This document shows positions 13,380 through 50,212 of a stretch of 64,000 nt of DNA, piece after piece; position 1 is the first letter of the stretch; every line of letters begins with the position of its first letter. This DNA is from a virus. The stretch covers positions 32,001 to 96,000 of IMG/VR virus record IMGVR_UViG_3300036845_000721. One strand, given 5' to 3'. The notes below the pieces were generated by a model. The model was given only the letters and a program-made list of their open reading frames with translations, had not been told where the DNA came from and made no database searches. Position numbers and translations under genes: made by a program.

Positions 13380-13381
13380 CG

Positions 13382-13606
13382 TCAGCCGTCCTCTCCGAAC
13401 AGCCGGACCAGGGCGCGCCCCAGCTCGGCTGCCTCCTCGCGCGGCATCTGGAACTCGCCCCGTTCGGCGCCCGCCGGCCCGAGTACCGCGAACCGGATCG
13501 TCCTGGTTTCGAGCCTGGGCGGCATCTCGCTGCCGTCCGCGTGGTCATCCACCTGGACGGCGAGCGTCCTGCCGCCCTCGCAGGCGGTTTCCTTGACGGT
13601 GATCAT
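13382..13606 (-). CDS. hypothetical protein
   Basis: ATG after CAGGAGACA header (13611-13619). Confidence 0.65.
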   Translation of the reverse strand: MITVKETACEGGRTLAVQVDDHADGSEMPPRLETRTIRFAVLGPAGAERGEFQMPREEAAELGRALVRLFGEDG

Positions 13607-14163
13607 GTGCTGTCTCCTGTTCTGGTGATGGTTAACTGAATCGCCCGGACCCGCTGCCATACCGGCTTCGGCTCGGCCAGCCCGGCCTGGATCAGCTTGG
13701 TGCGCCGGTCGCCGAGCGTCCAGGCGACCGCCGCGGCCAGGTTGAGGCAGCCGTCGGCAGGCAGCGTGACGAACTGCCGGCAGACCGCCCGGATCCCGGT
13801 GTGCTGTTCCTCCTCCAGCGAGCCGTCCTCCGGCCCGAACACGTACAGCGCATTCTCCGGGTGCTCGAACCAGGCCAGGTCCTGCGCGGTGCGGCTGATC
13901 TCCACCGCGACCGGCTCCGTGCCCGGCGGGAACTCCTCCAGCCAGCGGTACGGGTCCGCCGGGAGCAGCTGCGTGGTGTACCGGGGCATCCGCTCCTCGC
14001 GCGGCAGCCGGCTCATCGCCCGCCACTCGGCTTCCGCCCGGTTGCCGGTGTACCACAGCTGCGCCACGCCCAGGCAGGCGCAGGTCCGCAGCGCCTTGCC
14101 GACGTTCCCGGCTTTTTTCGGGTCGATCAGCAGTACCGCCGGCGTGATTCCCTGGCTGGTCAT
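13603..14163 (-). CDS. SpoU/TrmH (SPOUT) family RNA methyltransferase, stand-alone catalytic domain
   Basis: LIDPKKAGNVGKALRTCACLG (motif 1), VAVE, YVFGPEDGSL (motif 2), FVTLP...CLNLAAAV (motif 3). Confidence 0.9.
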   Translation of the reverse strand: MTSQGITPAVLLIDPKKAGNVGKALRTCACLGVAQLWYTGNRAEAEWRAMSRLPREERMPRYTTQLLPADPYRWLEEFPPGTEPVAVEISRTAQDLAWFEHPENALYVFGPEDGSLEEEQHTGIRAVCRQFVTLPADGCLNLAAAVAWTLGDRRTKLIQAGLAEPKPVWQRVRAIQLTITRTGDST

Positions 14164-14558
14164 GACCGTACCTGCGTCCGGTCGTACAGCGGGACGTACT
14201 GGCCGATCATCGCGTGCTCCCGGCAGCCGGTTTCGGAGCACGCGATGAACCGCCCGTTCTGGAGGTGGGCCAGCCGCTCGCCCAGGCAGCAGGCGCAGGA
14301 CGGCCGGGCGTGGATGTGCTCGGCCAGGCAGCCGACCGTTACCGTGAAGATCGCGTAGTGGCGGCACGGCCCGTCGCCAGCCAGCCAGGCTCCGCACCGC
14401 CGGGCCGGGTCCGGGCCGCCCAGGAAGGCCTGCAGCGTGACCGGGTAGCCCGGGTCCTCCCACGGGTCCGGGTCCTCCCAGTATTCCGCGATCTGGCTGA
14501 TCTGGCCGTCGCAGCCGGCGGCCAGCGTCTCCAGCAGCGTTTCCGTGACGGTGATCAT
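14160..14558 (-). CDS. Cys-rich hypothetical protein
   Basis: CAGGAGACA header at 14564-14572; several CxxC-like pairs. Confidence 0.65.
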   Translation of the reverse strand: MITVTETLLETLAAGCDGQISQIAEYWEDPDPWEDPGYPVTLQAFLGGPDPARRCGAWLAGDGPCRHYAIFTVTVGCLAEHIHARPSCACCLGERLAHLQNGRFIACSETGCREHAMIGQYVPLYDRTQVRS

Positions 14559-15534: not shown

Positions 15535-15633
15535 TGCCTGTCTCCTGTTCCTGAATTTTCCGGCTGACCGGAAAATCGTTATTCCCCCCTGCATTCAGGT
15601 TTCCCTGGCGGGAGCGGTCGTTATCGTGGCCGT

Positions 15634-16371
15634 GTGAGTGTCAGGTCCGGGCCGGGCGCCGCGCCGCGCGGCCACCGCTGGGAGCGGTTCGCCCGGATGG
15701 TGGTCGCCCGTTACGGCGGGCTGTGCCATCTCTGCGGCCATGGCGGCGCCCGGCAGGCCGACCACGTGATCTCGGTGGCCGACCGGCCGGACCTGGCCTG
15801 GGACATGTCCAACTGCCGGCCCGCGCACGGCGCGCCCGGCAACCCGTGCCCGGTGTGCTCCCCGAAGGCCGGCAAGCCGGTGAACTGCAACCAGCTTCGC
15901 GGCCCGATGAGTATCGAGCGGGCGAAGCGGATCATCGCCGAGCTGACCGGCGGCGGCCAGCACGCCCGGCCCCAGGCCCGGCCGGAACCGGACCCGGGAG
16001 CCGGGCGCGACTGGTTACGCCAGCTTGTCCATGTCCGGCGTTGCGCGGAATGCCTTGAAGCCGATGTTGTTAGCTCCGCACGCGGACAGCGGGATGCCGA
16101 GTTCTCCGCCGAAGTTGCCGGCCCCGTTGGGGTTGTAGTCCATGATCACCTCCTCCCGAGAGTGCCGGGCGGGCCGTACCGGACCGGGTCCGGGACTTTC
16201 GCCCAGTCGATGCGGATTGTTACCGCGTCATGGTCGCCCTCGGTGTCGGGGGTGATCACGATCGCGTCCTCGGGAAGCGAGTTCAGGATCCAGTCCAGCG
16301 CCAGTCCGGCACAGACCCGCTCGCTGGCGATCTGGGTGACGCCGGGTTCGTTGCGGCGCAGCTTCCGGTAG
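15634..16371 (+). CDS. HNH endonuclease, opposite to the surrounding genes; the conserved part probably ends near 16014
   Basis: CHLCG...ADHV...DMSNCRPAH...CN; the tail overlaps two minus-strand genes antisense. Confidence 0.75.
   Translation: MSVRSGPGAAPRGHRWERFARMVVARYGGLCHLCGHGGARQADHVISVADRPDLAWDMSNCRPAHGAPGNPCPVCSPKAGKPVNCNQLRGPMSIERAKRIIAELTGGGQHARPQARPEPDPGAGRDWLRQLVHVRRCAECLEADVVSSARGQRDAEFSAEVAGPVGVVVHDHLLPRVPGGPYRTGSGTFAQSMRIVTASWSPSVSGVITIASSGSEFRIQSSASPAQTRSLAIWVTPGSLRRSFR
16015..16143 (-). CDS. 42-aa peptide MDYNPNGAGNFGGELGIPLSACGANNIGFKAFRATPDMDKLA
   Basis: Translated by hand; strong RBS GGAGGAGGTGATC-ATG; coupled to the stop of the upstream gene. Confidence 0.6.
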   Translation of the reverse strand: MDYNPNGAGNFGGELGIPLSACGANNIGFKAFRATPDMDKLA

Positions 16372-16427
16372 GTGGTGAGCCGGAAGCTGACTGCCGGGAC
16401 TGTCTCCTGCTGGCTGCTGGTTGTCAT
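16146..16427 (-). CDS. hypothetical protein
   Basis: CAGGAG RBS; coupled to neighbours. Confidence 0.55.
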   Translation of the reverse strand: MTTSSQQETVPAVSFRLTTYRKLRRNEPGVTQIASERVCAGLALDWILNSLPEDAIVITPDTEGDHDAVTIRIDWAKVPDPVRYGPPGTLGRR

Positions 16428-16693
16428 CGCTGCTCCTGTCCTGATTGCGGCGGGCTGTCGGGCAGGTCCCGCACGTATCCGGCCTTCGTCCGCCAGCGGC
16501 GGTGGCAGGCACCGCACCGGCACTCGGACCAGGCCGACCGGGTGAAGTGGTAGCCGTTGAACGCGGAGCTGTTGCCCTCGCGCACGGCGACCCACCAGGA
16601 GGCCCGGTGCTCCCGGGCGCACTCCTGCTGGCGCTTGTGGTCTTGCTCCTGGATGCGCCTGTCGACGGCGGCCAGTGCCGGGTCGATGCTCAC
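16424..16693 (-). CDS. small Cys-containing hypothetical protein
   Basis: WSECRCGACHRRWRT motif; overlap coupling. Confidence 0.55.
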   Translation of the reverse strand: MSIDPALAAVDRRIQEQDHKRQQECAREHRASWWVAVREGNSSAFNGYHFTRSAWSECRCGACHRRWRTKAGYVRDLPDSPPQSGQEQR

Positions 16694-18672
16694 GAGCCCG
16701 CCGAGACCGGGTGCCTAGCGTCGCTGAACGCCCCGATCTGCTGGCTGGAGGCGGCGGCGGTGAACTTGTTCACGGTCAGGGTCACCGGGTCGCCGGGCTG
16801 GGCCAGCACGATCGCCGGGCCGAGCTGGCTGGTGCCGGTGTAGACCACGGCGTAATCCGGCTTGCCGCCGGGGCCGCACAGCGTGAGATAGTAGGTTTCG
16901 TTGCCGCCGGAGGTGTCGGACGCCTTTCCGCAGACGGTCCCGGTGCGGGTGACGGTGGACACGCCCGCCCCCGGCTGCGTGCCGGCGCTGCTGCCCTGGG
17001 CGAGCTGCTGCTGGTAGTTGGCCAGCGCCGCGTCCCGGCTGTTCCCGGCGGCCACGGCCGACCCGGACACGTTGTAGGCCGACACGAAGCCGACCGCGGT
17101 GAACGTGGGGTTGGCTACCGGCGGCTCGCCGGTCCCGCACGGGTCGCCCTGGTCGCCCTCCTGCTGCGCCGGGGCGCTGCCCGACGTCGTACCGGTGCCT
17201 GGCTCGTAACTGACCATCCAGGTCAGCTGGCCGTAGATCTCGTGCAGGGTCATGGCCTCGGGGACCAGGTGGCTGGACCTGACGTTGACCGCCCCGGAGC
17301 CCTGGCCGTTCGCGCCGACGCCCTGCGCGTTGCAGAACGCGCTGCCGACCGAGGTCTCGGTGGCCATCGGGCCGGCCGGGGTGTAGACCTGGATCGACCC
17401 GGTTGCCGAGTTCATCTCCAGGATCCGGTAGGTGGACACGTCGCTGCCGTGGCTGGTCAGCAGCATCCGCCAGGACGGGTTCTCGGCTCCCGTGTAGACC
17501 AGCACCGGGTCGCCGGAGACCGTGAACCGGTTGGTGTAGCCGGTGCCGCCCCACGCGCGGCGGGAGTTCTCGCCGTACCAGTCCCCGATGGTCGCGGCCA
17601 TTGACTGGCTGTAGACCCGGTCCACCCAGACCGGGAGGGGCGGGTAGCCGCCGCCGGCCGCGGCGGTCCGGCCGGGCAGCGCGTAGCGGGTGACCTGCCC
17701 GGTGTGCGCGTTGATCAGCAGCACGCCGACCGGCGCGAAGAACGTCCAGCCGACCTGCGGCCGGAGCAGCGTGACGGAGTAGTACGGGACCGGGTCGCAC
17801 AGCTGCGCCGTGCCGTCGGGGCCGCACCCGTCCGGGATCTCCAGCGTCGGGTTGTCCAGCAGGTAGCCGGAATACCCGTGGGTGCGCGCCCACCGGTCCG
17901 GTTCCGAGCCCTGGCCGCCGCCGAGGATGACGGTCATCGACGCGTTCGGGTACTGCGGCGCGTACCGCTCGATCACGGTGCCCGGCCCGCCCGGGTTCTC
18001 GCCGGAGACCATGATGTAGCCGGGGCTCTTGCCGTGCAGCTTGCCCTCCAGCGGGAAGGCGTACCACATGTGGCCGTTGACCCGCTGCAGCGTGGCCGGG
18101 CCGAGGTGCAGGTAGCTGGCGAAGCCCAGGGTTCCCGCGAGCCCGGAGCTCATCGCCTGCGACGCCCGGGTGTACGCCTCGTCCGGGGTGACGACCACCA
18201 GGTTGGTGGTGACGGACGCCGGCAGCGTGCCGGGCGGGTTCTCATTGACGCGCACGATGCCGTACGCCTCCACCGGGCAGTGCTGCCCGTTGGAGCCGAT
18301 CCCGGAGTTCGCCGACGGGCACGCCACCAGGCCGTGGCCGGAGCCGTGCCCGTTGATCCAGACGCCGCCGGCCACGAGCAGCACGATGAGCGGGACGACC
18401 GTGCCGGCGCTCACCGACTGCGCCGCCCCGTCCGCGATCCAGCAGACGAGCATGACGGTCGCGATGTTGAGCAGGACCAGCGGCAGCAGGCCGCTGAAGG
18501 TCATCATCGGCCGGGTGTGCACTGCCCAGTCCTCCATGAGGACGAGGAAGAACGTGAGGATGAAGGCAACGGCGGCTGCCGCGCCCCAGTTCTTGCCGCG
18601 GATCACGGCGAGTACCGCCGCGATCGCCGCGAATATCAGGCTGAAGATCAGCCCGATCCCGATTCCCATCAC
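16690..18672 (-). CDS. large membrane-anchored protein with extracytoplasmic domain, unknown function
   Basis: Four N-terminal hydrophobic helices, then a long soluble region (WYAFPLE, PYYSVT, WVDRVY); header at 18674. Confidence 0.8.
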   Translation of the reverse strand: MMGIGIGLIFSLIFAAIAAVLAVIRGKNWGAAAAVAFILTFFLVLMEDWAVHTRPMMTFSGLLPLVLLNIATVMLVCWIADGAAQSVSAGTVVPLIVLLVAGGVWINGHGSGHGLVACPSANSGIGSNGQHCPVEAYGIVRVNENPPGTLPASVTTNLVVVTPDEAYTRASQAMSSGLAGTLGFASYLHLGPATLQRVNGHMWYAFPLEGKLHGKSPGYIMVSGENPGGPGTVIERYAPQYPNASMTVILGGGQGSEPDRWARTHGYSGYLLDNPTLEIPDGCGPDGTAQLCDPVPYYSVTLLRPQVGWTFFAPVGVLLINAHTGQVTRYALPGRTAAAGGGYPPLPVWVDRVYSQSMAATIGDWYGENSRRAWGGTGYTNRFTVSGDPVLVYTGAENPSWRMLLTSHGSDVSTYRILEMNSATGSIQVYTPAGPMATETSVGSAFCNAQGVGANGQGSGAVNVRSSHLVPEAMTLHEIYGQLTWMVSYEPGTGTTSGSAPAQQEGDQGDPCGTGEPPVANPTFTAVGFVSAYNVSGSAVAAGNSRDAALANYQQQLAQGSSAGTQPGAGVSTVTRTGTVCGKASDTSGGNETYYLTLCGPGGKPDYAVVYTGTSQLGPAIVLAQPGDPVTLTVNKFTAAASSQQIGAFSDARHPVSAGS

Positions 18673-18687
18673 TTGTCTCCTGTTCCT

Positions 18688-19548
18688 TCAGACGCGGTGC
18701 CGGACGGCGACCGCGTGGTCTTCGGGCATGGCGAGAATGTCGCCGGCCTGGTCTATTTCCAGTACCGTGCCCGGGTCGGAAGCCTCGGTGAACGGCTGGG
18801 CGACGCCGACCGTCCAGCTGATCCCGTTCCCGTCGGTGAACGTGACCCGCCCGCCCGCGACCCGGACCGGGAGCACGACGTGACCGCCCGGGTCCAGGCT
18901 CCAGGCCGGGTCGCTCGCCGGAACGGTCCAGGGCGACGGGTAGTACAGGCCGTTGCTGTTCAGCAGCACCAGCGCGCGGGGCGAGCCGGCGGACGGCTGC
19001 GCGACGGCGGGAATCCCCCAGTCGTGCTCGAACTGCTGCAGGACGGTGTCCGCGGCCGGCGGGGCCTGCTGCGGCGCGAACGCGGTCGGCAGCGGCTGGC
19101 TGGCAGCCGGTGACGCTGCCGGACCGCTGCTTTCGGAAAGGACGTGCCAGACGCCTGCTGTAATGAGCCCGATGGCAAAGGCCAGGGCTGCAAGTACGAT
19201 CAGCGCTCTGCGTGGCAGCAGCGGCTCGCGGGGCCGGGTCCGGGGCGCCGGCCGCGGGGTGCGCGGCTGGGGTTCAGCTGTCTGGGTGATGATCGCGTCC
19301 AGCTCGGCGGCCTGCGCCCGGGTCAGCGGCGGGTTCATCTCCCGGTACCCGACCAGCCAGGTGCGGGCGCGGGTCTCCAGCAGGGCGCGCTGCTGCGGCA
19401 CCTGGGCCGCCTGCGCCAGCAGGCCCTCCAGGGTTGTCTCCTCGGCATCCGGCATGAAGACGGCGATCCCGGCGGTGCCGCCGGGCGCCTGCTGCCAGAC
19501 CTGCACCTTGCGCAGGAAGTCCAGCGCCGGGGTGGGATAACTGTTCAC
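18688..19548 (-). CDS. single-pass membrane protein
   Basis: Central ALIVLAALAFAIGLITAGVWHVL helix. Confidence 0.65.
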   Translation of the reverse strand: MNSYPTPALDFLRKVQVWQQAPGGTAGIAVFMPDAEETTLEGLLAQAAQVPQQRALLETRARTWLVGYREMNPPLTRAQAAELDAIITQTAEPQPRTPRPAPRTRPREPLLPRRALIVLAALAFAIGLITAGVWHVLSESSGPAASPAASQPLPTAFAPQQAPPAADTVLQQFEHDWGIPAVAQPSAGSPRALVLLNSNGLYYPSPWTVPASDPAWSLDPGGHVVLPVRVAGGRVTFTDGNGISWTVGVAQPFTEASDPGTVLEIDQAGDILAMPEDHAVAVRHRV

Positions 19549-19925
19549 GGTTTCCTCCCGGATTTCTCGATCATCTTGGCTACGGGCGGGGTCAGGTAGC
19601 CGGTCAGGATGACGTACGAGCCCTCGTCGCTGTTGCCGCCTGCCTCGTCCCAGAAGACCTGGTACCCGCGGTGTTTCGCATCCAGGAACGCGCGGCATAG
19701 CATTACCGCGGCCCAGTCGCTCCCGGTCCAGTAGGCGACCGCCCAGTCTTTCTGCGGTTCACCTTCGCTGCCGTTCACGGGCTGGAACCGGCCCGCCTGG
19801 ACCTGGGCGGACCATGCAGTGTCCTCATGAGCCGGCACGGCTGCTGCCCAGTAGGCTGCCCACGCCATGCTGCCCTGGATCAGCTCCTCGAAGTCGGCGT
19901 CGTCCATGCGGATCGTGATATTCAT
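19545..19925 (-). CDS. hypothetical protein
   Basis: GAGGAGG RBS; Trp-rich ORF. Confidence 0.6.
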   Translation of the reverse strand: MNITIRMDDADFEELIQGSMAWAAYWAAAVPAHEDTAWSAQVQAGRFQPVNGSEGEPQKDWAVAYWTGSDWAAVMLCRAFLDAKHRGYQVFWDEAGGNSDEGSYVILTGYLTPPVAKMIEKSGRKP

Positions 19926-20226
19926 GTGTTTCCTCCTCACGTGACCGGGCCGATGTCCTGGCCGCTCCGGTACCAGCGGAAGGTCCGCGACGGGGTGCCG
20001 GGCCGCAGCCGGGTGACGTGCTGCGGCGGCCCGGAAACCGACAGGAACTTCGCCCGGATCATAGCCAGCTCGCAGCCGGGCAGGTCCGGGCCGTAGTACT
20101 CCGGGCCGGTTTCGCCCGGCTCGATCCGGTAGCAGTCCTCCGGGACGGCCGGCGCGCCCGCCCCGGGCGGCTGCTCGGGCACCCGGCTGCGCTTCAGCTC
20201 CGCGACCTCGGCGGTGGTCGTTGCCG

Positions 20227-20760
20227 TCATAGCGCCCTCTTGGTGGCGAGGGAGCGTGCCGCCGTGGTCAGGGTCCAGCGGACCGGGTCCGGCGGCTCGG
20301 CCGTGTCCCGGACGTAGCCGTCGATTCGCAGCGCCTCCAGTTCCCGGCTGACGCGTGCCCGGCTCGTGCCCTGGAGTCCGTCCGCCCGGTTCACCCGGAG
20401 GGCCAGGTCGGACAGGAGCAGCCCGTCCGGGGCGCTGGTTTCCAGCAGCGCCGCCAGGATTACCCGGCGGAACGGGCTGGCCGGCACGGGCTCCGGGACT
20501 GCGGTTAGCCGCAGCCGGTAGGTGTCCGCGATATGCCGCGTGGCGCGCTCGTGGCGGCTGACCTCCGCCTGGAGGTTGGCGGCGTGCTCGCGCAGCTCCT
20601 GGTTCTCCAGCCGCAGCCGCTCGTCCTCGGCGTCGGACTGGATCGTCTCGCAGGTGACTGTTCCCTGGCCCGCCTGCGCGGCGGTTTCAGTTACGTAGTT
20701 CTCGTAGTCGGCGCGGGTGCCGCTGTTGGCGCGGCGCCATTCCCCGAAGGTCATCGTCAT
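20227..20760 (-). CDS. coiled-coil plus C-terminal winged-helix protein
   Basis: LRLENQELREH coil; ILAALL...LSDLA...RARVSRELEALRIDGYV. Confidence 0.6.
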   Translation of the reverse strand: MTMTFGEWRRANSGTRADYENYVTETAAQAGQGTVTCETIQSDAEDERLRLENQELREHAANLQAEVSRHERATRHIADTYRLRLTAVPEPVPASPFRRVILAALLETSAPDGLLLSDLALRVNRADGLQGTSRARVSRELEALRIDGYVRDTAEPPDPVRWTLTTAARSLATKRAL

Positions 20761-20770
20761 CCGCTGTCTC

Positions 20771-21529
20771 CTATCCGGTGGTCGTGGTGGTGGTCGTGAC
20801 GGCGCCGGTCTTGCTGACCGACGTCTTGTGCGTGACCGTGGTCGTGGCGGTGCCGCACTTGGTTGCCGTCTTGACGGACCGGCTGTGCGCGCCCGTGCTG
20901 GATGCCGAGTTCGTGACCGTGGTCTTGGCGGTGCACGCGCCTGCTCCGCCGATGCTGCCGGACCAGCGGTGCAGCGCGGGCGCCGCTGCCGAGACCGGCC
21001 AGGGCGGCGCGGGCACCGGGCTGAGCCCGTTGTAGGCGGCCAGCGCGTTCAGGCTGTCACGGAGCTGCCCGTAGGCGGCCCGCCAGCCGCCGGTCAGGCC
21101 GCCGGCGTAGGCGGTCAGGTAGCCCTGCGTGTCGTAGGCGAACCGGGCGGTGTCTTTCCCGTTGCCGGCGTCCTTGGCGAGCACCTGCAGGGCGTAGCCG
21201 TACCCGTCCGCGACCCACGCCTCGCGGTGGTCCCGGTCCGCCTGCCGCTGGTCGGCCAGCACCTGGGCCAGGTCACCGGCGATGTTCGCCGGCGCCCCGA
21301 TCCCGGCGACGGCTGTCTGCTGGACCGGGTGCGGCCGGTGGTAGCCCGACGCTGCCCAGCCGCCTGCTGCTGCCAGCATGGCGATCACGACCAGGCCCGG
21401 CAGCCATGGCACCAGCAGCACCCGCGCCGTCCCGCGCCTGATCGCCTGGCCCCGGTGCGGGCGCGGGCGCGGCGGCTTTCCGGGGTCCGGAGCCGGGCGG
21501 CGGCCGGTGCGGGAGTAGTCCTTTTTCAC
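20771..21529 (-). CDS. membrane-anchored/exported protein with Thr-rich C-terminus
   Basis: LLVPWLPGLVVIAMLAAAGGW helix; TTTVTHKT..TTTTTTTG tail. Confidence 0.6.
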   Translation of the reverse strand: MKKDYSRTGRRPAPDPGKPPRPRPHRGQAIRRGTARVLLVPWLPGLVVIAMLAAAGGWAASGYHRPHPVQQTAVAGIGAPANIAGDLAQVLADQRQADRDHREAWVADGYGYALQVLAKDAGNGKDTARFAYDTQGYLTAYAGGLTGGWRAAYGQLRDSLNALAAYNGLSPVPAPPWPVSAAAPALHRWSGSIGGAGACTAKTTVTNSASSTGAHSRSVKTATKCGTATTTVTHKTSVSKTGAVTTTTTTTG

Positions 21530-21927
21530 GCGGTCTTCCCTTCGGCGGTGAGCTGGTAGGACCGGGGGCCGCCCTGGGTACGGCCGCCGGGCTTCCGGAC
21601 CATCTGCCGGCCCGGCTTGACCAGTCCCAGGGCGGCCAGGCGGGAGCCGGTGCGGTGCAGGCTGAACGTGGCGCTGCGCACCGGCACGCCGGCCCAGCGG
21701 CCCGGGTGCGCGGCGATCAGCTGCGCCGGGGTGGCCTTGCCGCCCGGAGCTGCCTGGAGCGCGTCCAGCATCCATCTCTGGCCCGGCGTCAGCCGTGCCC
21801 CGGTTCCCCCCCGAACGCCAGTTCCCCCCTGGATGCCGATTCCCCCCTGGGCGCCGGAAACCCCGGCTCCGGCGCCGAGCAGGGCGGCCAGCTCCGCGGA
21901 TTGCGCGCGGGCCAGTTCGGTGTCCAT
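21526..21927 (-). CDS. winged-helix (MarR-like) protein
   Basis: LTPGQRWMLDAL...RLAALGLV...YQLTAEG. Confidence 0.55.
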   Translation of the reverse strand: MDTELARAQSAELAALLGAGAGVSGAQGGIGIQGGTGVRGGTGARLTPGQRWMLDALQAAPGGKATPAQLIAAHPGRWAGVPVRSATFSLHRTGSRLAALGLVKPGRQMVRKPGGRTQGGPRSYQLTAEGKTA

Positions 21928-22670: not shown

Positions 22671-22694
22671 TGCAGTCTCCTGTTCTTCCGGGGG

Positions 22695-35048: not shown

Positions 35049-35064
35049 TTGCTGCCTCCTGTTC

Positions 35065-36027: not shown

Positions 36028-36049
36028 CGGTTCTGTCTCCTGTTTCTGT

Positions 36050-36376: not shown

Positions 36377-36428
36377 GGTGAGGGTGTCTCCTGATCGTTG
36401 AAGGTTGCCGAGTGCAGGATTGCACTCG

Positions 36429-37505: not shown

Positions 37506-37544
37506 CGGTGTCTCCTGATCTTGATTTTCCGGTCAGCCGGAAAG

Positions 37545-40500: not shown

Positions 40501-43500
40501 GACGGGGCCGCGCTCGCGGCCGGTGCCCAGTGCGGCCCGTCCGGCGTGTCGGTGACGGTGCCCAGGAACGTGCCCGGGTGATGGCCGGAGCTGCCCCCGG
40601 TCATCCAGACCGCGACCCGGTCCCGGCCCTTGTCATCCTCGCCGATGCACACTCTCACGCCGGCGTGCCAGCCGCGCGTGTGCGCCTCGCAGCCGGCCTT
40701 CATCCCGGCCCCGTAGTTCTTGCCGCGCCGGTTGTCGTAGTCGTGATAGAACCTCATGATCGTTCTCCTGATCCTTGGTCGGTCAGTATGATTTTCCGGT
40801 CAGCCGGAATGTTCAGGCGTCCGCGGTCTCCCACAGGTACGCGTCGTACTCGCCGCCCAGGAACTCGCGCAGCTTCCTGGTCTGCTCGCACACGGCGCGG
40901 TACAGGCTTACGGAATCCCCGGTGTCTGTGCCGTACTCGCGTGCCCAGTCCGCGTAGTCGCGGGAGTTGTCCAGGCTGGCCGCGTCGGCGGTCGTGCACG
41001 CCAGCACGTCATAGGCGTCCGGGATGCGCCCGTTGTGACCCGGTCCCATGTAGAACGGCAGCTTGAGGTCGCGCTTGCCGGGCCGGGACAGCGTGAGGTC
41101 CCACCAGTCCCCGTCACGCCGGTCGCTGCCGGCGATGACGGCCGGCGGCCGGTTCCGGCGCTTGGCGGCGGTGACGCCGATGTGGTCCGCGCGGATGCGC
41201 TCGGTGAGCGTTGTCATGGCGTGCCTCCTCAGTGCCGGTGCGTGACGGTGATCGTTGCGGTGCCCTCACCAGGGAAGTCCGGTGAGCCGGGGTCGGCGTC
41301 GCGGGCGTCGCAGCGCTCGCCGATCACCCGCGCGTCCGGTAGCTCCAGCTCGTACTCGCCGCCCATGTCGTAGCGCGGCACGTCCGGCGCTGACGGCGCG
41401 CCGTTCAGCAGGTCTCGTTCGCGCTGGCGGACGTTGATGACGGGATGCTCGCGCCATTCGCCGGCGTCGTAGACGGTGACCGTCATGCCGTTGGACAGCT
41501 CCACGGTCACCGACGGCAGTTCGACGGTGCGCAGTTGCAGTTTCATGATCGTTCTCCTGATCCTGTTCGGTCAGTATGGTTGGGCGGGTGCCGGCGCGCG
41601 GGCCTGGATGCGGTCCGCGCGCCGGCGTAGTCGGGGCTACCAGCCGTTGCCGGCGATGACCAGCTTGGCCTGGACGACTGGGTCCTGGTACGCCTCCACC
41701 GCCGGCCGGTGCACGACCGGCGGCTGCGGCGCAGGGTCCGGACCGTCCAGGACTATGGTGCTCGCGTTCATCTGTCTCCTGATCTGGTGATGCGGTGCCG
41801 GCGGCCGGTCAGCCGCCGGAGGTCACTGTGTGCGTGTAGGTCCGGGTGCCGGCCTTCGACACGGCCCATTTGCGGACGTCCTGCCACCAGCGCGGGTAGC
41901 TGCGCTCGTCCCGGTAGACGTTCTCGGTGTAGTGCGCGCCGGTCTTGCTGCGGCTGGTGATGCGCTCCCACTTCTGGTAGTCGTGGCCGCAGGCGTACTT
42001 GTGCACCCAGGTCTGCCGGACCGTGCCGGCTGACGACACCGAGTAGCTGTAGCTGTTCGTCGTCGTGCACGCGGTCGTGCGCGCGGCGGTCAGCACGGCC
42101 GCTGTAACGTGCGACGGGGCCGGCTGCGAGTGCGCGGGCGGCCCCGACGGCTGCCCGGACAGCAGCGCCATCGTCAGCATGCCGGCCGCTGCGGCGACCG
42201 CCAGCACGGCCAGCGCGAGCAGGACGGCGCGGCGCGGGAACGGTGCTGGCCTGGCGCGGCGGCCGGTGTTGCGGAGCGCGATCGCGTACGAGGGCGATCC
42301 GGTGTGACGGTTTGCGGACATGAATCCTGTCTCCTGATCTGTTGTTGATCTTCCGGTCGGTCGGAAAGTCTCGGGTCAGGCCGGCGTGAGCGCCGTCCAG
42401 GCGGTGAGCTGCATGTTCTCGCGCATCTCGTAGTACCTCGGCTTGCGCGGGTCCGGGTCCTCGTCCCACAGCCGGCGCAGGACTGCGCGCTGCGCGTCGG
42501 TCAGCGTCAGGTCACCGCGCTTGAACACTGACCGGCCGTTGCTGTCCTGCCAGTTCGCGTACGCGTCCCGCACCGGGAGCATCATCCCGCGCCGCTGCGC
42601 GTTGTAATCGGCCCACGCGGCGGCGAAGGCGCCGGCGAACGCGGTCTCGCCGTCGGTCGCGCCGGCCGGCGTGGCGGCGGGCGTGCCGGTGCTGTCCTGG
42701 CTGGCCCAGGCGTAGCCCAGCGCGAGCCACCTGGCCTCATCGGGTGCCATGGCTCAGACCTCCGCCCCGGTCAGCGCGGCCAGCTCGGACAGCGCCGCGT
42801 CCACGGTGATGCCGTGCATGATGGCGCGGGTGAGGATGTCGTACACCTCGTCGGACTCCCAGGCCCGCCCGTAGATCAGCGTGAACGAGTCCGAGATGAG
42901 GTTGACCTGGCCGCGGATGTACTCGGCGTTGGGCTCGCCCGGCTCGGTCAGGTCCCGCGCCGCTTCCAGCACGCGGCGCAGGCTCGCCTGCTCGTGCTCG
43001 CCGTACGGTTTCCGGGCGCGCACCGCTGCGGTCAGCAACGCCAGGGCGTCATGCTCGTGGGCGCGCCCTGCCAGGGCCTCGTCAGCCAGGTGGAGCGCGA
43101 TAGCCAGCGGGATGACGGGAGTCGCGGGCGGCTGGTTAACGGTCACTGGCCTAGACCTCCGCCCCGGTCAGCGCGGCCAGCACGTTGCGGCGGCGCAGGA
43201 TCTCCGGGTCGGTCCCGGCCGGCAGCTCGTCCGTGAGGCCGGCGGTCCGGTAGGCCTTGATCGCCGCCTCCGCCAGCTCCGCGTCCGGTCCGGTCATCGC
43301 CCCGAAGTAGAGCCGGCGGTGCGACTCGTCCGGGATGTAGGTGCCGTCGCCGGGCTCCCCCGCCCACAGCTGGACGATGTCGTTGTAGCCGTGGTAGTCG
43401 CCGGCGGCCATGGACAGGTGCTCGTACATCGCGGCCACGCCCTGCCGGAACTCGGCCAGCTTCGGATCGGAGGCGGCCAGGTACCGGTTCGCCGCCGCGC

Positions 43501-43519
43501 GGATCTCGCTGACTCGCAT
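37545..43519 (-). other. run of short hypothetical genes: 37545-38063, 38067-38465, 38469-38801, 38798-39130, 39143-39709, 39706-40098, 40095-40757, 40813-41217, 41229-41546, 41809-42321, 42376-42750, 42754-43146, 43151-~43519
   Basis: Contiguous ORFs, most with headers; 41809-42321 has a signal-anchor helix. Confidence 0.65.
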
Positions 43520-43585
43520 GGTTTTTCTCATGATCATTTTCTCCTGATCTTCGGTGCGGAGTGCAGGATTGCACTCGGATGTGAA

Positions 43586-43726
43586 CCGGCAGCCGGCCGG
43601 GGAAACCGCACGCACCCGGTCACCCGGGTCCGTTCCATACCCGCCAGCGGCGGGAGCGGCTGCCTTACGCGGGCCTGCGGACGGAACCTGACCGTGCCGC
43701 TCACCCCTGTCCCGGCCGGCTGCCGG
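43586..43726 (-). ncRNA. candidate structured non-coding RNA
   Basis: Perfect 16-bp terminal inverted repeat (43586-43601 / 43711-43726) enclosing three further stems, one with a GUGA (GNRA) tetraloop on the - strand; intergenic. Confidence 0.55.
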
Positions 43727-43732
43727 AGTCTG

Positions 43733-46700
43733 TTACTCGGTCGTCAGCCGGTAGCCGTCCGGCTGGATGGCAGCGAGCCGCCGCCACTCGGCTTCGCCGT
43801 GGACCAGGAAAGCGTCGGTCAGCTCTCCGTCGGTGTCGCGGACGTAAGCCATGGCCGGGTAAGTAGTCGGCACATCGCTCTCGTTGCTGTCGTCGGTGTC
43901 CGGGCGGTCGCAGCTCCAGAAACCCAGCTCCCCGCCGGCGTCCCACGACGATTCACAGCCGGCCAGCTCGCAGTCGGCGCAGACCAGGTCGGTGCCGTCC
44001 GCGCTGATCACCGTCTCCCCGCAGCACGGGCAGTCGTAGTAGCCCGGCTCGCGGAATGGCACCCGGCGGAACACGATCGCCCAGCCGGCCGCTTCCTCGG
44101 AGTCGTCCAGCGTCTCCACCGTGACCGCCGCGTACAGGCCGGGCCGGCGGACGATGTCCTCGGCGAGATGCCCGCCGATGTACTCCGACGCGTGCATGAT
44201 CGCCGGCGCGAAGTTGCCCTGCTGCCCGCTGTAGCCGTCGGTGAACGTTCCCCAGCCCGCGGCCTCGATGCCCGCGACCCACGCGTCATAGTCGGCCTGG
44301 AGGATCTGCCCGTCCGCGTCGGTGCCGATCACCGACTCCGGCGCGTGCACATCCGCCGGCCCGTCGCTCACGCGGCCTCTGGCGTCCACTGAGATCACGT
44401 GATCGAAATCCATCTCGGCGCTGAGCCAGTCAGCGTGACCGATTCCCATGGTCGTTTTTCCCTTCTCGATATTCCGGTTAACCGGAAAGTTCAGGCCAGG
44501 ATGCTGACGCAGTCCAGGCAGGTGATGGCGCGGCGGTGCAGCGCGGCGCGCCCGCCCTCGTCGCTGGATACGCCCGTCGCCCGGCCGCAGACCGGCGGCT
44601 CGCGCCACAGCGGCCGGTCGTCGTGCAGGGTGTCCAGGTCGATGGCGTGCACGGTGCCGTCGTCGTGCTCCACGCCGACGTAGCCGCGCGGCGTGAGCAT
44701 GACGGCTGCGAGCCGGCTCATCCGCTCGCCCTCGGCGTGCAGGTACGCGGCCAGCTCCAGGATGCCGGCGTGGTCGGCCGGCGTGATCCGGGGATCGGCG
44801 GCGCACGCGGCGCACGTCTCTACGGGGTCGGTGTGGAATCCGGGTTCGGGCCTGCTCATGACACGCCTGCCGCGTACAGGCCGGCGCCGTCGGCTTCCAT
44901 GCGCGCGATGTCAGCCTCGTCCGTGCTGGCCGGCTCCGGCTGGAACCAGAACACGACCGCGTCCCGCGACCCGCCGAGGTTGCTTCCGCAGACGTCGCAC
45001 GCGGACCAGGTGAACGTCAGCTGCTCGCACTCGCAGTCGCCGCCACGGTCGGACTCGGTCTCCAGCTCGTGGCCGCGCGCCACGGTCAGCCGGGCGCCGG
45101 CCGGGATCTCCCAGTGCGCCGCCTCCATCGCGTCGGCGTAGCTGCCCGCGAGCACTTCCACCGTGCCCCGGACCATCGACCCGCGCACGCGGTGCGGGAC
45201 CAGGTAGGTCACGGTCCAGTTGGACCGGCAGTCGTGGCCCTCGCGGAACATGCCCAGCGTGACCTCGCAGCCCTCGGTGTAGTGCGCGATCCGCGCCTGC
45301 CACTCGGTTATCTCGGCTGGCGTCCAGTCCGCCGGCGCGTCGCCGTTGGCCAGCAGGAACAGGCAGTCGGTGCAGCACCAGCCGCTGAACGTCTGGTCTC
45401 GGTTCATGGTCATGATCGTTTGTCTCCTGATCGTGGTCGTCAGTGTTCCGGAGTGCAGGATTGCACTCAGCCGGGGTAGGGGTCGCGGAGAACAGCCTGG
45501 ATGTGCGGCGGGAGCAGCCCGATGACGATGTTGGCGGCGTCGGTTCCGGTCAGCCCGGACTCGCCCTCAAGCAGCAGATCCAGTGATGCGCTGTAGCCGG
45601 CGTTGCGCAGCCGCGTTTCGAGAGTGACCGGCTGCCAGTCACCTTGCAGCGTCTCGCCGTCCGGGTTTTCCGCGTACTCGAACCGGGTCAGGTCCACCGC
45701 GTACAGCATGTTGTCGTACTCGGGGCACTCCAGCGCGACGTTCGCGTCCGCGACGTGCTGCTCCGTCAGCTCGCCGAACCATGCCCACAGCTCGCCGTCA
45801 TCGTTGTTGGCCGCCTGCCAGACGTGCTCGGCGCGGGCGAACCAGCGCAGCGGCGGCACCATCGCGTTGGACGTCACCCACGCGATCGGGTCATCGCCCG
45901 ACGTGCGCGCGGCCACGATGATCTGGTCGGCCACGTCCTGCGCGAGACGCCGGACCGTGCCGCGCCCCACGGTGACGGGCAGCTCGATCGCGTCGCCGTA
46001 ACGACCGCCGGGAACGCCTATCGCGCCGTTCCGCGTGGTCGTGTATGCCTCGGTCATGATCGTTCTCCTATTCCGCCTAGCCGCGCGGGTCGCGGTCTAG
46101 CTGGCTGATAATCTCGCGCTCGTCTCGCTCGGCACACTGCCGGCGGGAGATACCCGGATCGCACGTGCACGGCTGGTCCGCGCTGTCCGGCCGGTAGCTG
46201 GGGGTTTGCATGATCGATCCTCCGATCGGTCGGAATGTCAGTGAACGTAGGCACCGCGATCGGTGCAGGTGAACGTGTCGCCGTCGGGCAGCGTCACCGA
46301 ATCGCCCGGCTGCAATGCCGCGTGCCAGGTGCCGGTGATCACGGTGCCGGTATAGACCGGCTGGCTCGCCTGGCAGGTGACCGCCGGCGCGTAGTGGTGC
46401 GTCAGCCGCAGCGCCGCCACTTCGGCCTGGACCAGCAGCGCGAACGCCAGCAGAATCCAGCCGGTTCGCTCCCGCCAGCCCATCAGGCCGCTTCCTTGCG
46501 CCACGCCGCGCGCTCGGCCGCGGACGGGGAGTCCGGCCTGCCAGGCCGGTGTGGTGGCCTGGTCAGGTCGATCTTGGGCTGGTGATCGAACATCGCCTCG
46601 AACAGCGCTTGCGCGGCCAGCGCGCCGGCTGTCGGGGTGTCTTGCTCGCGGGTGGTCATGATCGTGTCTCCTGATCGTGATGCGGAGTGCAGGACTGCAC

Positions 46701-49515
46701 TCGGGTTACGGGCAGGCCCGGTCCATGCCGGGCAGGTGCGACTGCCAGTGCCCGTGGATGTGGCGGACGTAGGTCTCGCACACCGTCATCTGGCGCGGCA
46801 GGCCGTGGATGAACGACTGCACCAGCGCCACGGTGCCGGCGCGGTCCAGCCCGATGCGGAACTGGTAGTAGCTGACCAGCGCGGCGCGGAGGTTCCGCTG
46901 GTGCGCGAACATGCACAGCAGGTGATTGATGAGATGGGCCATGGTCATTTCTCCGATCGGTCGGAAATCAGGTCCCGTATCCACGGGAACTGCCGGATGA
47001 ACTCGCGCCATTCGGGGGACTTATCCCGCCAGGCCGGCCAGCATGACGCGCAGATGTTGCCGCTGGCTGCCTCGTAGACGTGGCCGCATAGCCGGCACGC
47101 ACGCTTGGATTTCACTGGGTCACCCCCGTCTGGGATAGGTCCTGCGCGGCCCGCAGCGCCACGGAGAGGCGCGAACACGGGCCAGCGGGTGTTACCAGGT
47201 AGGCCGGCTCTCGGCGCGCCGTACGGCCAGCTCTGCGCGGATCGCGCGGACGGCCGGCGGTGACGCGAGCCGCAAGTCCAGCCCGCGGAGTACGTCGGTG
47301 CGGACATCGTCCAGCCGGATCGCCGTCCACACGGGCCGCGATTCCTGGCGCATGGTTGCGTACATGGTTGCTGTCTCCTGATCGTGTTAGTTCCGTCAGT
47401 GTCGTGTTTCTGGGCGATTGCCGCAGCGCGCCGCCGGAGTGCAGAACTGCACTCGGCCGCGCGCCACGGGTGACGTCCAGCTTCAGCTGACGGCCGCCAG
47501 CTCGCCAAGGGCACCGTCGCGCGAGGCACGCTGGCGGCGCGGGCGCTTGACGGCCGCCTTGATCTGCGCGTCCATCTCGGCCCTGATCTTGGCGACCTTG
47601 GCCTCGGCCGCGGTCACCTCGCCCTGGAGGCGCAGCAGGTTGGCCTCGGCCTTGGCCAGCTGCGTCGGCAGGTCATCCTCGCCGGCGCCGTCCGCGTCGT
47701 CCGCGCCGTCGCCGTCGCCCTCGCCGTCGCCCTCGCCGGCCGGCTTGCGGGACTGCACGATCGCACGCGCGGCGGCCGTGGTCATCGCTTCCTGCACCAG
47801 CTCGAACCGGTCATCCTCACGGCCGAGGATCTGGTGCACCGTCCAGGATGCGACGCCGCGCTGGTCTGCCGGGTACTGCTCGGCGACCTTGCGGAAGTCG
47901 TACAGGGACTTGCCGGGGACGTCCAGGTCAGCGGCGAACCGCTCGATCGTGCTGGCACCGTAGGTCGTGGCGACCTTGAGCGCCAGGTCACCGAGGACCC
48001 AGTTGAACTTGTACTGCGACGCGATGGCGGCGCGGCCCTGCCGGACGGCGGTGTTGTACCGGGCCGGGCTGTCTTCCACGGCCACGACGGTCTTGACGGG
48101 GGTCTTACCGGACTTGCTTGCCATGATGTCTGTCTCCTGATCAGTTACCTGGCGGGTTGCCGAGTGCAGAACTGCACTCGGCGGTGCCGTCGTCTCGCGG
48201 CACTCACGGGCCGGCAATGTTCCGGTCGATCGGAGCATCGCCGGCCCGTCAGCGGGCGGGAACGTTACCGGCCGGCCGTCCAGTCGGTGTCGGTGTAGGC
48301 GCAGAAGTCGGACGGCACTGCGGCCCGGTCGGCTAGCCGTCGCAGGATGCGCGCGGCGTGGCGCGGCTCAGTCGCTGCGATGCGCGCGGCATAGGCACGC
48401 TGCGCGGTCTCGGTGTCCGGGCGCGGAGGGATGTGCAGCCGCGCGCAGTCCAGCGCGCCGGCGCCGCTGTGCGGCATGCCGTGGTCGGGGCTGTCGCAGC
48501 ACTGGCGGACGTAGGCGAACGGCCGCTCGGCCGGCTCAGCTTTGGGCTGGCGGTGCGTGTCACTCATGATCATGTCTCCCGATCTTGCGGCGGAGTGCAG
48601 AACTGCACTCCGGTCAGCTAGCGGTTAGGGTGTCTGCGGCGACGTCGAACAGCGTCCGGGTACCGGGCACGATAAGCGGACCGGTCGGTACGTCACCCGC
48701 GATCACCCGCGCGCCCGTGCGCTCATACAGGCAGCGTCCGCACATCTGCGTGCGCGTGCAGTTGCAGGTCATGACCGGCCACTCCGCTCGATGATCGCGG
48801 CCCATCCGGCCAGCGATCGGTCGCTGTCGCGGTCGGCCGCGATGCCGGCGGCGGGCAGGCTGGTCTCGCCTAGCACAGCACCGCATCGCGGGCAGGCGGA
48901 CAGTGCCAGGTCGGGGGACGTGAATCCGCATCCGTCGCAGATCACGATGGGTTTGCGGGTAGTGCGTGCCATGATCGTGCCTCTCAGTTGGAGTGCAGGA
49001 TTGCACTCGGGTCAGTTGTCGCCTAGCCATACCGGCTGGCGGCGGACGATTGCGACCGCGCCAAGCCCGTGCAGGACCGAACGATCGGCCATGGCCGGCC
49101 GCCGCAATCCCTCGGATTCGCCGGCCAGCCGTTGCCGTACCTCCATGCCGGCCACAGCGCGAACGCCGGTCGCTACCCGCGCGATGCGCGGTGCGGACAC
49201 GTGCGTGAGCGATTCGCTGGCATACTCGGCCGATTCGGCGCGCCGGCGGACACCTCCGCCACCCATCCGCGCGGTGCCCATTGTGTTGCCGCGCGCCGTG
49301 CGGGTAACCGCGCGGCCGTCACGGTCAGTTTGGGTGACCGTGCGGCGCGGTGCGCCGGCTACCCGCCGGCCGGCCGTCGGATCGGTCCGCGCGTTGCTGC
49401 CCGTGCGGCCGGCCGTGCCGTACGTGCCCGACCGCAGTGCCGGCGGAGGTGACTTAGGCGACAGTGCAGCGCGCGACACGGTGCCTAGCTTGGCTTGCTT
49501 GTGTCGTGATCCCAT
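43733..49515 (-). other. run of short hypothetical genes: 43733-44449, 44491-44859, 44856-45413, 45467-46057, 46945-47115, 47192-47365, 48265-48573, 48769-48972, 49012-49515 and others
   Basis: Most are preceded by a header and/or palindromic site. Confidence 0.6.
47483..48124 (-). CDS. probable DNA-binding protein (W.LGD-type helical/HTH domain plus coiled coil)
   Basis: FNWVLGDLAL...IERFAADLDV...SLYDFRKVA...SWTVHQIL; header and operator upstream. Confidence 0.55.
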   Translation of the reverse strand: MASKSGKTPVKTVVAVEDSPARYNTAVRQGRAAIASQYKFNWVLGDLALKVATTYGASTIERFAADLDVPGKSLYDFRKVAEQYPADQRGVASWTVHQILGREDDRFELVQEAMTTAAARAIVQSRKPAGEGDGEGDGDGADDADGAGEDDLPTQLAKAEANLLRLQGEVTAAEAKVAKIRAEMDAQIKAAVKRPRRQRASRDGALGELAAVS

Positions 49516-49633
49516 GGCGGGAATCTCCGATCGGTCGGAATGTCGGTGCCCCGTTAGGCACTCACTGACCAGCCCGCGCGGGGATGCTACGGGCTGGACA
49601 GTCAATGAACGGTGCGGGATCGGTGCGGGTAGC

Positions 49634-50212
49634 TCACGCGACCTTCAGGCCGGCCGCGTTGCGGCTGCGCAGGATCGATCCGATGTACGCGGAGATGTCT
49701 TCCAGCTGCCCGCTGGTCAGCGCGTCCAGCTCACGGTGCAGGACCGCGATGCGCGCGGCATCGGCCGGCTTGACGGTGGTCACGTTGTCCGTGCCGCCGG
49801 CAGGCTTGGCGGCAGGCTTGGCGGCCGGCGCGCGCTTGACGGTTTTGCCGGCCTTCTCGGCATCGGTCTTGACGGTCCGCACACTGGCCTTGACCACTTG
49901 CGCAACCTCGCCGTATTCCATGCCGGCTTCCCTGAACAGCTCCACCAGGAACGTACGCGCGGCGGTATCGGGCTTGAATCCGTCCGAGTGCAGTTCTGCA
50001 CTCACGTACTCTGACCAGGTCTCGTAACCCATGAGGTAGTGAACCTGCTGGGCGTACGCGGTAACGATCATCGCGCCGAGCGTTTCGATCGCGTTGCCGG
50101 CGGTCGTGATCTGCGCATTGATTGCCGCAGTCACGCGCGGACCGTATTCCTCATTGTTCGCGTAGCGGAAGTTGTGCGGGTAGGTCGTGGTCTCACTCAT
50201 GATGACTCCCAT
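49634..50212 (-). CDS. HTH DNA-binding protein, first gene of the leftward array; candidate repressor
   Basis: MGYETWSEYV motif followed by GMEYGEVAQVVKASVRTVKTD HTH; Ala/Lys-rich linker. Confidence 0.7.
   Translation of the reverse strand: MGVIMSETTTYPHNFRYANNEEYGPRVTAAINAQITTAGNAIETLGAMIVTAYAQQVHYLMGYETWSEYVSAELHSDGFKPDTAARTFLVELFREAGMEYGEVAQVVKASVRTVKTDAEKAGKTVKRAPAAKPAAKPAGGTDNVTTVKPADAARIAVLHRELDALTSGQLEDISAYIGSILRSRNAAGLKVA

Follow-up and report, generated by a model that had tools for sequence, protein, structure and literature searches.

We analysed a window of 64,000 nucleotides, bases 32001-96000 of the single 131,444-bp virus record IMGVR_UViG_3300036845_000721 (71% GC); positions below are those of the window. 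Its minus strand carries a long array of mostly small genes whose units are headed by a ribosome-site motif and in part by one of two palindromes, A or B. Our best explanation is that the element is a lytic actinophage that belongs to an uncultivated soil clade and has a genome of 131 kb or more, and that the array is its early accessory operon, read as long RNAs, in which palindrome B would be the operator for a helix-turn-helix (HTH) protein encoded by the first gene, with palindrome A as a separate element. Taken as a whole, we give this explanation about even chances of being right.

The record encodes a large terminase, a portal, a head protease and an HK97-type capsid protein, and the element is therefore a tailed phage. 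Four full-length relatives were read for comparison with this genome (G000): G001 (164 kb), G002 (190 kb), G003 (140 kb) and G004 (210 kb). They are distant, at 30-65% amino-acid identity; a closer relative is represented by a contig whose homologue of array gene 66 is 85% identical.

A gene caller trained on the codon usage of this genome placed 75 minus-strand genes within 13382-50200, with a median length of 130 aa and 46 genes under 150 aa. The nearly unbroken minus-strand array of short open reading frames (ORFs) described in the original prediction was recovered by these calls, as 75-77 genes with a single plus-strand ORF (~15634-16014) intervening. It forms a long unidirectional block of accessory small genes that adjoins the replication genes and is read from a promoter region at 50.2-51.8 kb. 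Within the array, one to seven genes at a time are translationally coupled, with junctions of -8 to +4 nt, and the resulting units are set apart by gaps of 15-200 nt. According to the intergenic listing, the gaps between units end with GA(T/A)CAGGAGACA, followed by about 5 nt and then the start codon, and in about twenty gaps a palindrome is found between the upstream stop codon and this motif. The listing agrees with the order of palindrome, motif and start codon that had been proposed earlier, and all three motifs occur far above chance.

The sequence GATCAGGAGACA had 40 matches (up to 2 mismatches), 35 of them on the minus strand within the array, against 3.2 expected in dinucleotide-preserving shuffles, from which the expected counts of the two palindromes were also obtained. 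Its core CAGGAGAC (up to 1 mismatch) is found ahead of 37 of the 75 array genes, ending 1-9 nt before the start codon (mode 5 nt), and 31 of these 37 starts are ATG. The core also precedes 30 of the 151 genes outside the array and is therefore enriched in the array, not exclusive to it; these 30 genes belong mostly to a second non-structural block and to the plus-strand replication and TraB-like regions. Genome-wide, 56 of the 67 genes that carry the core start with ATG. The usual actinobacterial 16S 3' end, which may not be that of the host, pairs with AGGAG only. The information content of the flanking positions (G/A/T-or-A/C upstream and A/C/A downstream) is ~0.3-1.2 bits per position for G000 and G002 and lower for G003 and G004. 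GA(T/A)CAGGAGACA is an AGGAG ribosome site with conserved flanks, and it marks translation units. Since similar headers, with palindrome A, also precede plus-strand genes at 3993, 11791 and 61575, this arrangement is not private to the array.

GATC, which is part of the ribosome-site motif and of many GATCATG starts, occurs 854 times genome-wide against ~347 expected from base composition (2.5-fold over-represented). Control of the Dam type was considered and set aside: the excess is genome-wide and only modestly higher near gene starts.

Palindrome B and the first gene of the array

Palindrome B (GAGTGCA-N4-TGCACTC, with AGTGCAG-N2-CTGCACT as an alternative consensus) occurs at 12 sites, 11 exact and one a symmetric variant, against 0.27 expected in shuffles. 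The arms are invariant across the 11 exact sites and the centre is variable. All sites lie within 30522-50821 and none was found elsewhere in the 131-kb genome. The promoter-proximal concentration noted earlier is clear, with ten of the 12 sites at 43.5-50.8 kb and the others at 30522 and 36410.

The sites are listed in Table 1 with the other features of the array and its control region. One site is located upstream of the likely main leftward promoter and is probably not transcribed from it; B is upstream of the promoter in relatives as well (~180 nt upstream in contig L334, ~58 nt in L336). The symmetric variant precedes the first gene of the array (gene 1), and another site lies within this gene, where the codons AGT, GCA and GAA are kept in G000, L334, L336 and L337 despite ~90% GC at third positions; the YVSAELH residues at this site are invariant in 6 homologues of gene 1. 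The nine remaining sites, inside the array, each follow a stop codon, in many cases directly, and precede the next ribosome site.

The product of gene 1 (188 aa) is a probable HTH protein, its nearest ESM Atlas clusters being HTH_23/Sigma70_r4 proteins of Actinomycetota (scores 0.91-0.93). Its homologues are rare: only five were found in 5.8 billion proteins, at 59-75% identity, none in the viral-contig scan, and the metagenome scan gave L334 only. The comparison of B and gene 1 in relatives covers the three readable contigs, L334, L336 and L337. In each of them B recurs at the matching places: ahead of a conserved TGTTATAA(T/C) promoter, between this promoter and gene 1, inside gene 1, and again after the stop codon of gene 1 and those of following genes. 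A scan of G001-G004 found neither B nor a gene 1 homologue, the sole similarity to gene 1 being a 70-residue stretch of 33% identity in G002.

B is most likely the DNA operator of the gene 1 product, because one conserved site is probably not transcribed, the arms are invariant, and B is paired with gene 1 in a lineage-specific manner. In the mechanism that we propose, transcription from the main promoter TGTTATAAT and from TATACT at 24104-24109 would place ~76 genes on very long polycistronic RNAs. The gene 1 protein would accumulate, bind the B sites and turn the operon down, partly by blocking elongation; the sites would act upstream of the promoter, before gene 1, within it, and at nine junctions of the first 20 kb. 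The net effect would be an autoregulation similar to that of Cro, with sites spread in the manner of stoperators. CIRCE/HrcA was considered for B and set aside, since B has the hexamers of CIRCE but in everted order and at another spacing.

Palindrome A, promoters and the role of the headers

The core of palindrome A (TCCG-N6-CGGA) has 19 sites in the window against 2.8 expected in shuffles. Aligned in the direction of the downstream gene, these sites give an imperfect palindrome of ~24 bp, GAYnYTCCGG-N4-CCGGARnATC. The family spreads across the array as originally described, with thirteen intergenic sites between 15559 and 49526; at 46221, 46952 and 49526 the right arm, TCGGAG, serves as the ribosome site too. 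A extends beyond the array and is found on both strands, always ahead of a gene. It is intergenic in 15 of 26 occurrences in G000 and in 27 of 37 in G002, against 14-17% intergenic DNA per genome. A is present in G000-G003 as genome-specific variants: TTCCGG-N4-CCGGAA in G000, TTCCGGG-N2-CCCGGAA in G001, YTCCGGC-N2-GCCGGAR in G002 and TTCCGA-N4-TCGGAA in G003. A is a clade-wide element and not a private second operator of this array. Of the two-operator array proposed earlier, the two palindrome families stand, and B is operator-like and tied to gene 1; A occurs clade-wide and outside the array too.

In G002, A often belongs to a long-form header of ~90 nt that has at least 6 copies at 3100-18500 (L306), in the order A palindrome, GATCG.GCCGTCTGCGGGGCGCTGGCCAG.CCCGCACCGATGATGCCAGGCC, then GATCAGGAGAC.

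A might be the binding site of a conserved factor of the phage or the host; alternatively, it might form an intercistronic hairpin that leaves the ribosome site free. The clade-conserved small proteins among which a binder of A may be sought had no Pfam match, and the winged-helix protein at 14936-15208 is missing from G001 and G003, where A occurs. The paired columns of A co-vary beyond column shuffles, the observed score being reached in 0 of 500. Much of this co-variation is between genomes, and a symmetric protein site co-evolving with its binder would give it too. The centre of A is self-complementary (TCGA, CCGG, TTAA) in 4 of 11 strict sites, and the mismatches of six mixed sites are A-C, not G-U, on the sense strand; both features favour a palindrome that acts at the DNA level.

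Several points weigh against our best explanation as a whole. Indications of an HTH fold in gene 1 are weak: its match to Sigma70_r4_2 (residues 86-115, Pfam E = 0.011) is below the cutoff, its AF2 model has a mean pLDDT of 54 with a three-helix segment as the sole moderately confident part, and Foldseek returned no significant match to this model, the weak neighbours being HTH domains. The co-occurrence of B and gene 1 comes from four related contigs in which both are physically adjacent, and these are not phylogenetically independent. The promoter-side B site is off the -10/-35 region, unlike classical operators. The co-variation of paired positions in A fits both a hairpin and a symmetric protein site, and unrecognised promoter types are possible, which would weaken the idea of long polycistronic RNAs. 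Finally, the centre has the same orientation relative to transcription in all nine intergenic B sites, and B hairpins are stable as RNA in predicted folds (-12 to -25 kcal/mol for header segments); an RNA role of B therefore keeps some likelihood.

These last two observations fit the alternative in which both palindromes act in the mRNA, as intercistronic hairpins just past stop codons that would shield upstream segments from 3' exonucleases, serve as marks for processing or separate the next ribosome site from its upstream context, with their sequence invariance coming from an RNA-binding protein or from header copying. We regard this alternative as possible but rather doubtful. It would account for the position of A, which lies near the stop codon of the preceding gene (median distance 16 nt, mode 3-4 nt) and at a variable distance from the next start (median 71 nt, range 9 to more than 100 nt), for the A sites whose right arm is the ribosome site, and for the several B sites that overlap or touch a stop codon. 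It is also consistent with AGGAG being unpaired in most predicted header folds, and with symmetric double changes that keep pairing, such as AAGTGCA..TGCACTT and TCCGA..TCGGA. What speaks for the operator reading over hairpins is the conserved B site upstream of the only recognisable promoter, together with the absence of any compensatory change in the arms of the 11 canonical B sites. The self-complementary centres of A are not needed in a hairpin loop, and its A-C mismatches are not those expected of RNA pairing. Neither palindrome matched an Rfam family. Intrinsic terminators were rejected for both, as neither A nor B is followed by a T-run on either strand.

A broader idea, which we find unlikely, is a phage-wide "plug-and-play" expression grammar, where a trans-acting factor, either a protein or an RNA, would read the conserved flanks of the ribosome site on ~67 genes as a translational regulon and the stop-adjacent palindromes would insulate the units. 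Newly acquired genes would then be correctly expressed wherever they were inserted, and the 37-kb array could swap most of its genes and their order with regulation kept. Within a genome its palindromes would change together, along with their binder or through conversion among headers.

The long transcripts of the operator reading rest on the scarcity of promoters. The relatives carry, before some genes, a SigA-type promoter of the form (T)TGaca-N17-TAGACT or TATACT, then GCAAGAGACA, and the type like TATACT plus GCAAGAGACA is found in G001 and G002. A pattern scan of the array of this genome found two SigA-type promoters only, the main one and a single internal one (Table 1). In 23 of the 24 internal headers no TANNNT is placed as in a promoter (at most ~45 nt ahead of the downstream start), the exception being 24104-24109; stray TANNNT hexamers occur farther upstream in three gaps, and their genome-wide rate is ~1 per kb per strand. 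The headers are thus without SigA promoters. With two such promoters for the whole array, its ~76 genes are probably carried on very long polycistronic RNAs, and the array is probably read as two of them.

The headers could instead be promoters of a non-SigA type, served by host RNA polymerase with a phage-encoded or alternative sigma factor, so that each headed unit would be transcribed separately. A comparable header of Cluster K phages holds both a promoter and an inverted repeat (PMC11373665), a CATACT box lies downstream of the palindrome in two A headers and is conserved in G002, and gene 1 weakly resembles sigma region 4. This remains improbable in our view: the distance between palindrome and ribosome site runs from 1 to more than 50 nt, several headers being too tight for a fixed geometry, the 23 headers cited above lack a -10-like hexamer, palindromic promoters are unusual, and no RNA polymerase or full sigma factor was found among the proteins searched.

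Between the main promoter and gene 1 there is a leader of ~540 nt without ORF (50201-50740), nearly identical in L336 and only ~130 nt long in L334; neither the leader nor the palindromes had a match in Rfam. The control region is packed with repeats (50899-51051, 51080-51160, 51690-51760), including a duplicated box of ~27 nt, GCCAAGTGCATGCCGTGGAAGATAGTT, and direct and inverted copies of GGTGTGAYC. The units of the tandem repeats in L334 and G001 differ from those of this genome. The repeats of the control region could be origin iterons or partition-type sites. Terminator-like sites in this region showed no excess over shuffles.

Turnover and content of the array

Homologues of the 75 array genes number 6 in G001, 26 in G002, 13 in G003 and 13 in G004, and 39 genes have none in these four relatives; for the rest of the genome, the share of genes with a counterpart in these relatives is 26-39%. 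Seven array genes form a conserved core (starts 47483, 38067, 33860, 27671, 27435, 18688 and 16690). Compared with G002 the array is broadly collinear, with many local swaps and a single orientation throughout. The variability expected of an accessory array is borne out by these comparisons, from which the array appears hypervariable, with a gene content that turns over fast.

The original prediction was that the array may expand by recombination at shared headers, to be checked by whether breakpoints fall on them. This was examined against G002 only, by counting adjacent array pairs in which both genes have a G002 homologue. For pairs without a header, adjacency is retained solely at genes 47-48, and among the 8 informative headerless junctions it is broken at 6 coupled ones (17/18, 27/28, 42/43, 66/67, 67/68 and 70/71), as well as at 21/22 (an 11-nt gap). 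For pairs with a header, 65-66 is kept (ribosome-site motif only) and three of the four are broken (22/23, 55/56, 56/57). Enrichment of breakpoints at headers is therefore not supported, although at 30-65% amino-acid identity junctions may have been remodelled after the events, and the test is a weak one.

The two duplication scars reported earlier are real sites of different nature. At 42750/43147 the identity of two adjacent, unrelated genes covers their last 11 codons and stop, and is the one clear recombination joint, located inside coding 3' ends and not in a header. The header variant ATACTGACCGA..GGATCAGGAGAAC at 40754/41543 is also borne by the orthologues of both genes in G002; it is therefore old and travels with the genes, and does not represent a recent duplication. 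Recent tandem gene duplication was discarded more generally, as no paralogues were found within the array. The header of gene 40095-40757 reads ACATTCCGGCTGACCGGAAAATC here and GAACCTCCGGCTGACCGGAGCATT in G002. Orthologous genes otherwise carry the palindrome variant of their own genome, which indicates concerted evolution of the headers of each genome.

Searches of G000-G004, which include records estimated to be 90% and 100% complete, gave no tyrosine or serine recombinase and no integrase or resolvase, and PF00589 was absent from the five genomes in a family search with positive controls. The clade therefore looks lytic. A model in which headers are recombination substrates, the array growing or being shuffled by cassettes as in integrons or in "linker sequence" mosaicism, is the least probable that we considered and very unlikely: constant orientation with shuffled order relative to G002 (genes 44371, 43146 and 40757/41217 being locally swapped), a different gene after gene 1 in G000, L334 and L337 flanked by B headers, and the greater likeness of headers within a genome than between orthologous genes of relatives would suit it, but synteny breaks at coupled headerless junctions at least as often as at headers, the one preserved joint lies in coding sequence, the array has no paralogues, the recombinases are lacking, and the palindromes (16-24 bp) are far below the length of attC sites. 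Integron-like cassettes were rejected on the same absence of an integron-type or other site-specific recombinase.

The array proteins are mostly without annotation. By their properties, 29 are acidic (pI <5), 7 have membrane-like segments and 8 carry paired CxxC motifs. Nine Pfam families were matched by one protein each (E <= 0.001), including SpoU methylase, RyR domain, DUF4190, DUF7666, a zinc finger and a winged helix. Three proteins matched NCBIfam models and none matched a PADLOC family; of the 15 PHROG families matched, 14 have no assigned function. The plus-strand ORF at 15634-16014 had no Pfam match among the frames submitted; a second HNH endonuclease is encoded beside the control region, at 51801-52901. 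The largest protein of the array (660 aa, 16690-18672, minus strand) has membrane-like segments and homologues of 43-46% identity on long contigs, the largest of 745 kb, that look bacterial, the source name of one cluster being "Trebonia sp."; it may be a cellular gene inside the array and a clue to the host lineage. A role of array proteins in counter-defence or host takeover is an idea drawn from the early regions of other phages. As at least 75 proteins almost wholly without annotation, they are a reasonable pool in which such functions might be sought.

The array is adjoined at 1-13379 by plus-strand replication genes, among them a helicase and a 1,447-aa primase-polymerase fusion whose nearest isolate match is Actinoplanes phage phiAsp2 (40% identity). 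The best isolate match of the capsid protein is 32%, to Streptomyces phages. Neither DNA nor protein resemblance to the array was found among isolate phages (megablast and tblastn against a phage collection). A related capsid protein is encoded by 387 viral contigs, and the best 80 of these 387 are 75-92% identical; the clade is large, uncultivated and from soil. G001 was singled out as a relative by counting GC and motifs among viral contigs, and scans of viral contigs for palindrome plus motif gave matches that were nearly all single chance hits. The record is classed in its database as linear and ~62% complete. An FtsK/SpoIIIE-like (TraB-type) translocase is encoded on the plus strand at 57529-59619, next to small genes with the ribosome-site motif (59646, 61596). 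A 584-aa Ro60-like RNA-binding protein (phrog_850) is found at L004:13478-15232 (genome 125478-127232, minus strand), beside a block with the 15 tRNAs of the record (L004:15783-19332). The end of the record falls within what looks like another tRNA, and the genome is probably cut there.

Table 1. Features of the array and its control region in window coordinates
Feature	Position	Strand	Evidence
Early gene array, 75-77 mostly small genes	13382..50200	-	Codon-usage gene calls, intergenic listing, protein properties
Palindrome A site with GATCAGGAGACA, header of a replication-region gene	3993-4006	+	Motif scans; similar headers at 11791 and 61575
SpoU/SPOUT RNA methyltransferase homologue	13603-14163	-	Family search
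Winged-helix regulator (IclR/MarR-like), 90 aa, sole clear DNA-binding domain of the array	14936-15208	-	Family searches
ORF with HNH-like Cys/His motif, breaking the minus-strand array	~15634-16014	+	GC3 0.94; CHLCGH...DH...N...H in translation
Thirteen palindrome A sites in intergenic gaps (14-nt cores): 15559, 25131, 28657, 32279, 34323, 37528, 40795, 42352, 44473, 46221, 46952, 48221, 49526	15559..49539		Pattern scan
Sole internal SigA-like -10, TATACT then GCAAGAGACA, ahead of gene 23499-24077	24104-24109	-	Pattern scan
Nine palindrome B sites inside the array (18 nt each), starts 48991, 48593, 48162, 47437, 46685, 45451, 43559, 36410, 30522	30522..49008		Pattern scan
Two adjacent unrelated genes (42754-43146, 43151-43537) with the last ~33 nt identical	42750-42787 and 43147-43184	-	No other protein similarity
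167-aa gene missed by the caller; header is an A-like palindrome with the ribosome site in its arm	49012-49515	-	Homologous 179-aa L334 gene with the same header
Gene 1, 188 aa, probable HTH protein, candidate B binder	49634-50200	-	Weak HTH indications; homologues co-occur with B
Palindrome B site within gene 1, over YVSAELH codons	49986-50003		AGT, GCA and GAA are rare A/T-ending codons
Palindrome B variant AAGTGCA-N4-TGCACTT, 28 nt before the gene 1 start	50228-50245		Identical variant at the same place in L336
Extended -10 element TGTTATAAT, likely main leftward promoter	50741-50749	-	Pattern scan; same element conserved in L334 and L336
Palindrome B site upstream of the promoter, ~55 nt from the -10 element, ~-70 to -87 from the inferred start	50804-50821		Pattern scan
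Nine tandem copies of a 17-bp unit beside the promoter	50899-51051		Tandem repeats at the same place in L334, L336 and G001

Comparison with known systems

The start-associated sequences (SAS) of Cluster K mycobacteriophages are asymmetric motifs of ~13 bp with AGGAG, located 3-9 bp before the start codon, with the consensus GGGATAGGAGCCC and 11-19 copies (Pope et al. 2011, PMC3203893). The ribosome-site motif described here is likewise a 12-13-bp asymmetric AGGAG motif in one orientation, a few bases before a mostly ATG start, on a subset of non-structural genes that often belong to unrelated families. The conserved flanks of SAS cannot extend 16S pairing, and those of the present motif would not do so with a 16S 3' end of the usual actinobacterial type. 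The consensus is a different one, GA(T/A)CAGGAGACA instead of that of Cluster K, ~67 genes carry it, and the carrier is an unrelated, far larger and apparently lytic phage. As judged by sequence comparison, the motif is an analogue of SAS and not a member, the definition being apparently matched except for the sequence itself.

Extended SAS (ESAS) of Cluster K are units of 46-47 bp with SigA-like -35 and -10 hexamers (PMC3203893; Adephagia study, PMC11373665). As in ESAS, an imperfect inverted repeat with a lineage-specific consensus is found here just upstream of a subset of start-associated motifs. Unlike ESAS, the A and B headers have no embedded SigA-like -35/-10 (with the exception of 24104-24109), and there are two unrelated palindrome families, one of which is confined to the promoter-proximal part.

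Cluster O phages have 17-bp palindromes, TGTTCGG-N3-CCGAACA (Cresawn et al. 2015, PMC4351075), which share with those described here invariant 7-bp arms, a variable centre, tens of copies, phages without integrase, and a location mostly in short gaps between the small genes of a long leftward operon. One in three of the Cluster O sites is intragenic and none is tied to ribosome sites, whereas here all B sites but one, and most A sites, occupy intergenic DNA, after a stop codon and ahead of a start-associated motif. The array differs from an integron array, where attC sites of 57-141 bp mark the 3' end of each cassette: most junctions here have no palindrome at all, and there is no adjacent IntI-type tyrosine recombinase.

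Cluster A stoperators are asymmetric sites of 13-14 bp that point in the direction of transcription; the immunity repressor of these temperate phages binds them as a monomer and stops elongation there (PMC9283540). Many repressor-type sites in short intergenic gaps of transcribed DNA are also seen here, nine intergenic B sites and one in gene 1, and an elongation stop of this type would be a working model for the nine sites inside the operon. B is palindromic, unlike stoperators, and no integrase was found in five genomes of this clade.

Lambda Cro, a small HTH protein, is the product of an early operon's first gene and has palindromic control-region sites of 17-18 bp. The position of the candidate HTH protein in the first gene, with palindromic sites in the control region, is similar. 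The nearest B site does not overlap the promoter core, unlike the Cro sites, most B sites are inside the operon, and gene 1 has neither sequence similarity nor confident fold similarity to Cro.

Mycobacteriophages have been known since 2011 to carry start-associated motifs and intergenic palindromes, for which no function has been demonstrated. The array described here is best described as a variation on these systems of actinobacteriophages, in which the headers are promoterless and one palindrome is tied to a candidate regulator. It offers a cleaner case, with a very high motif copy number and motifs uncoupled from promoters, and the same grammar is found in at least two related large phages (G001 and G002), with A-like palindromes in a third (G003). 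The genome-specific palindrome variants of the clade allow tests of co-evolution, and B with gene 1 forms a candidate regulator-operator pair that can be tested directly.

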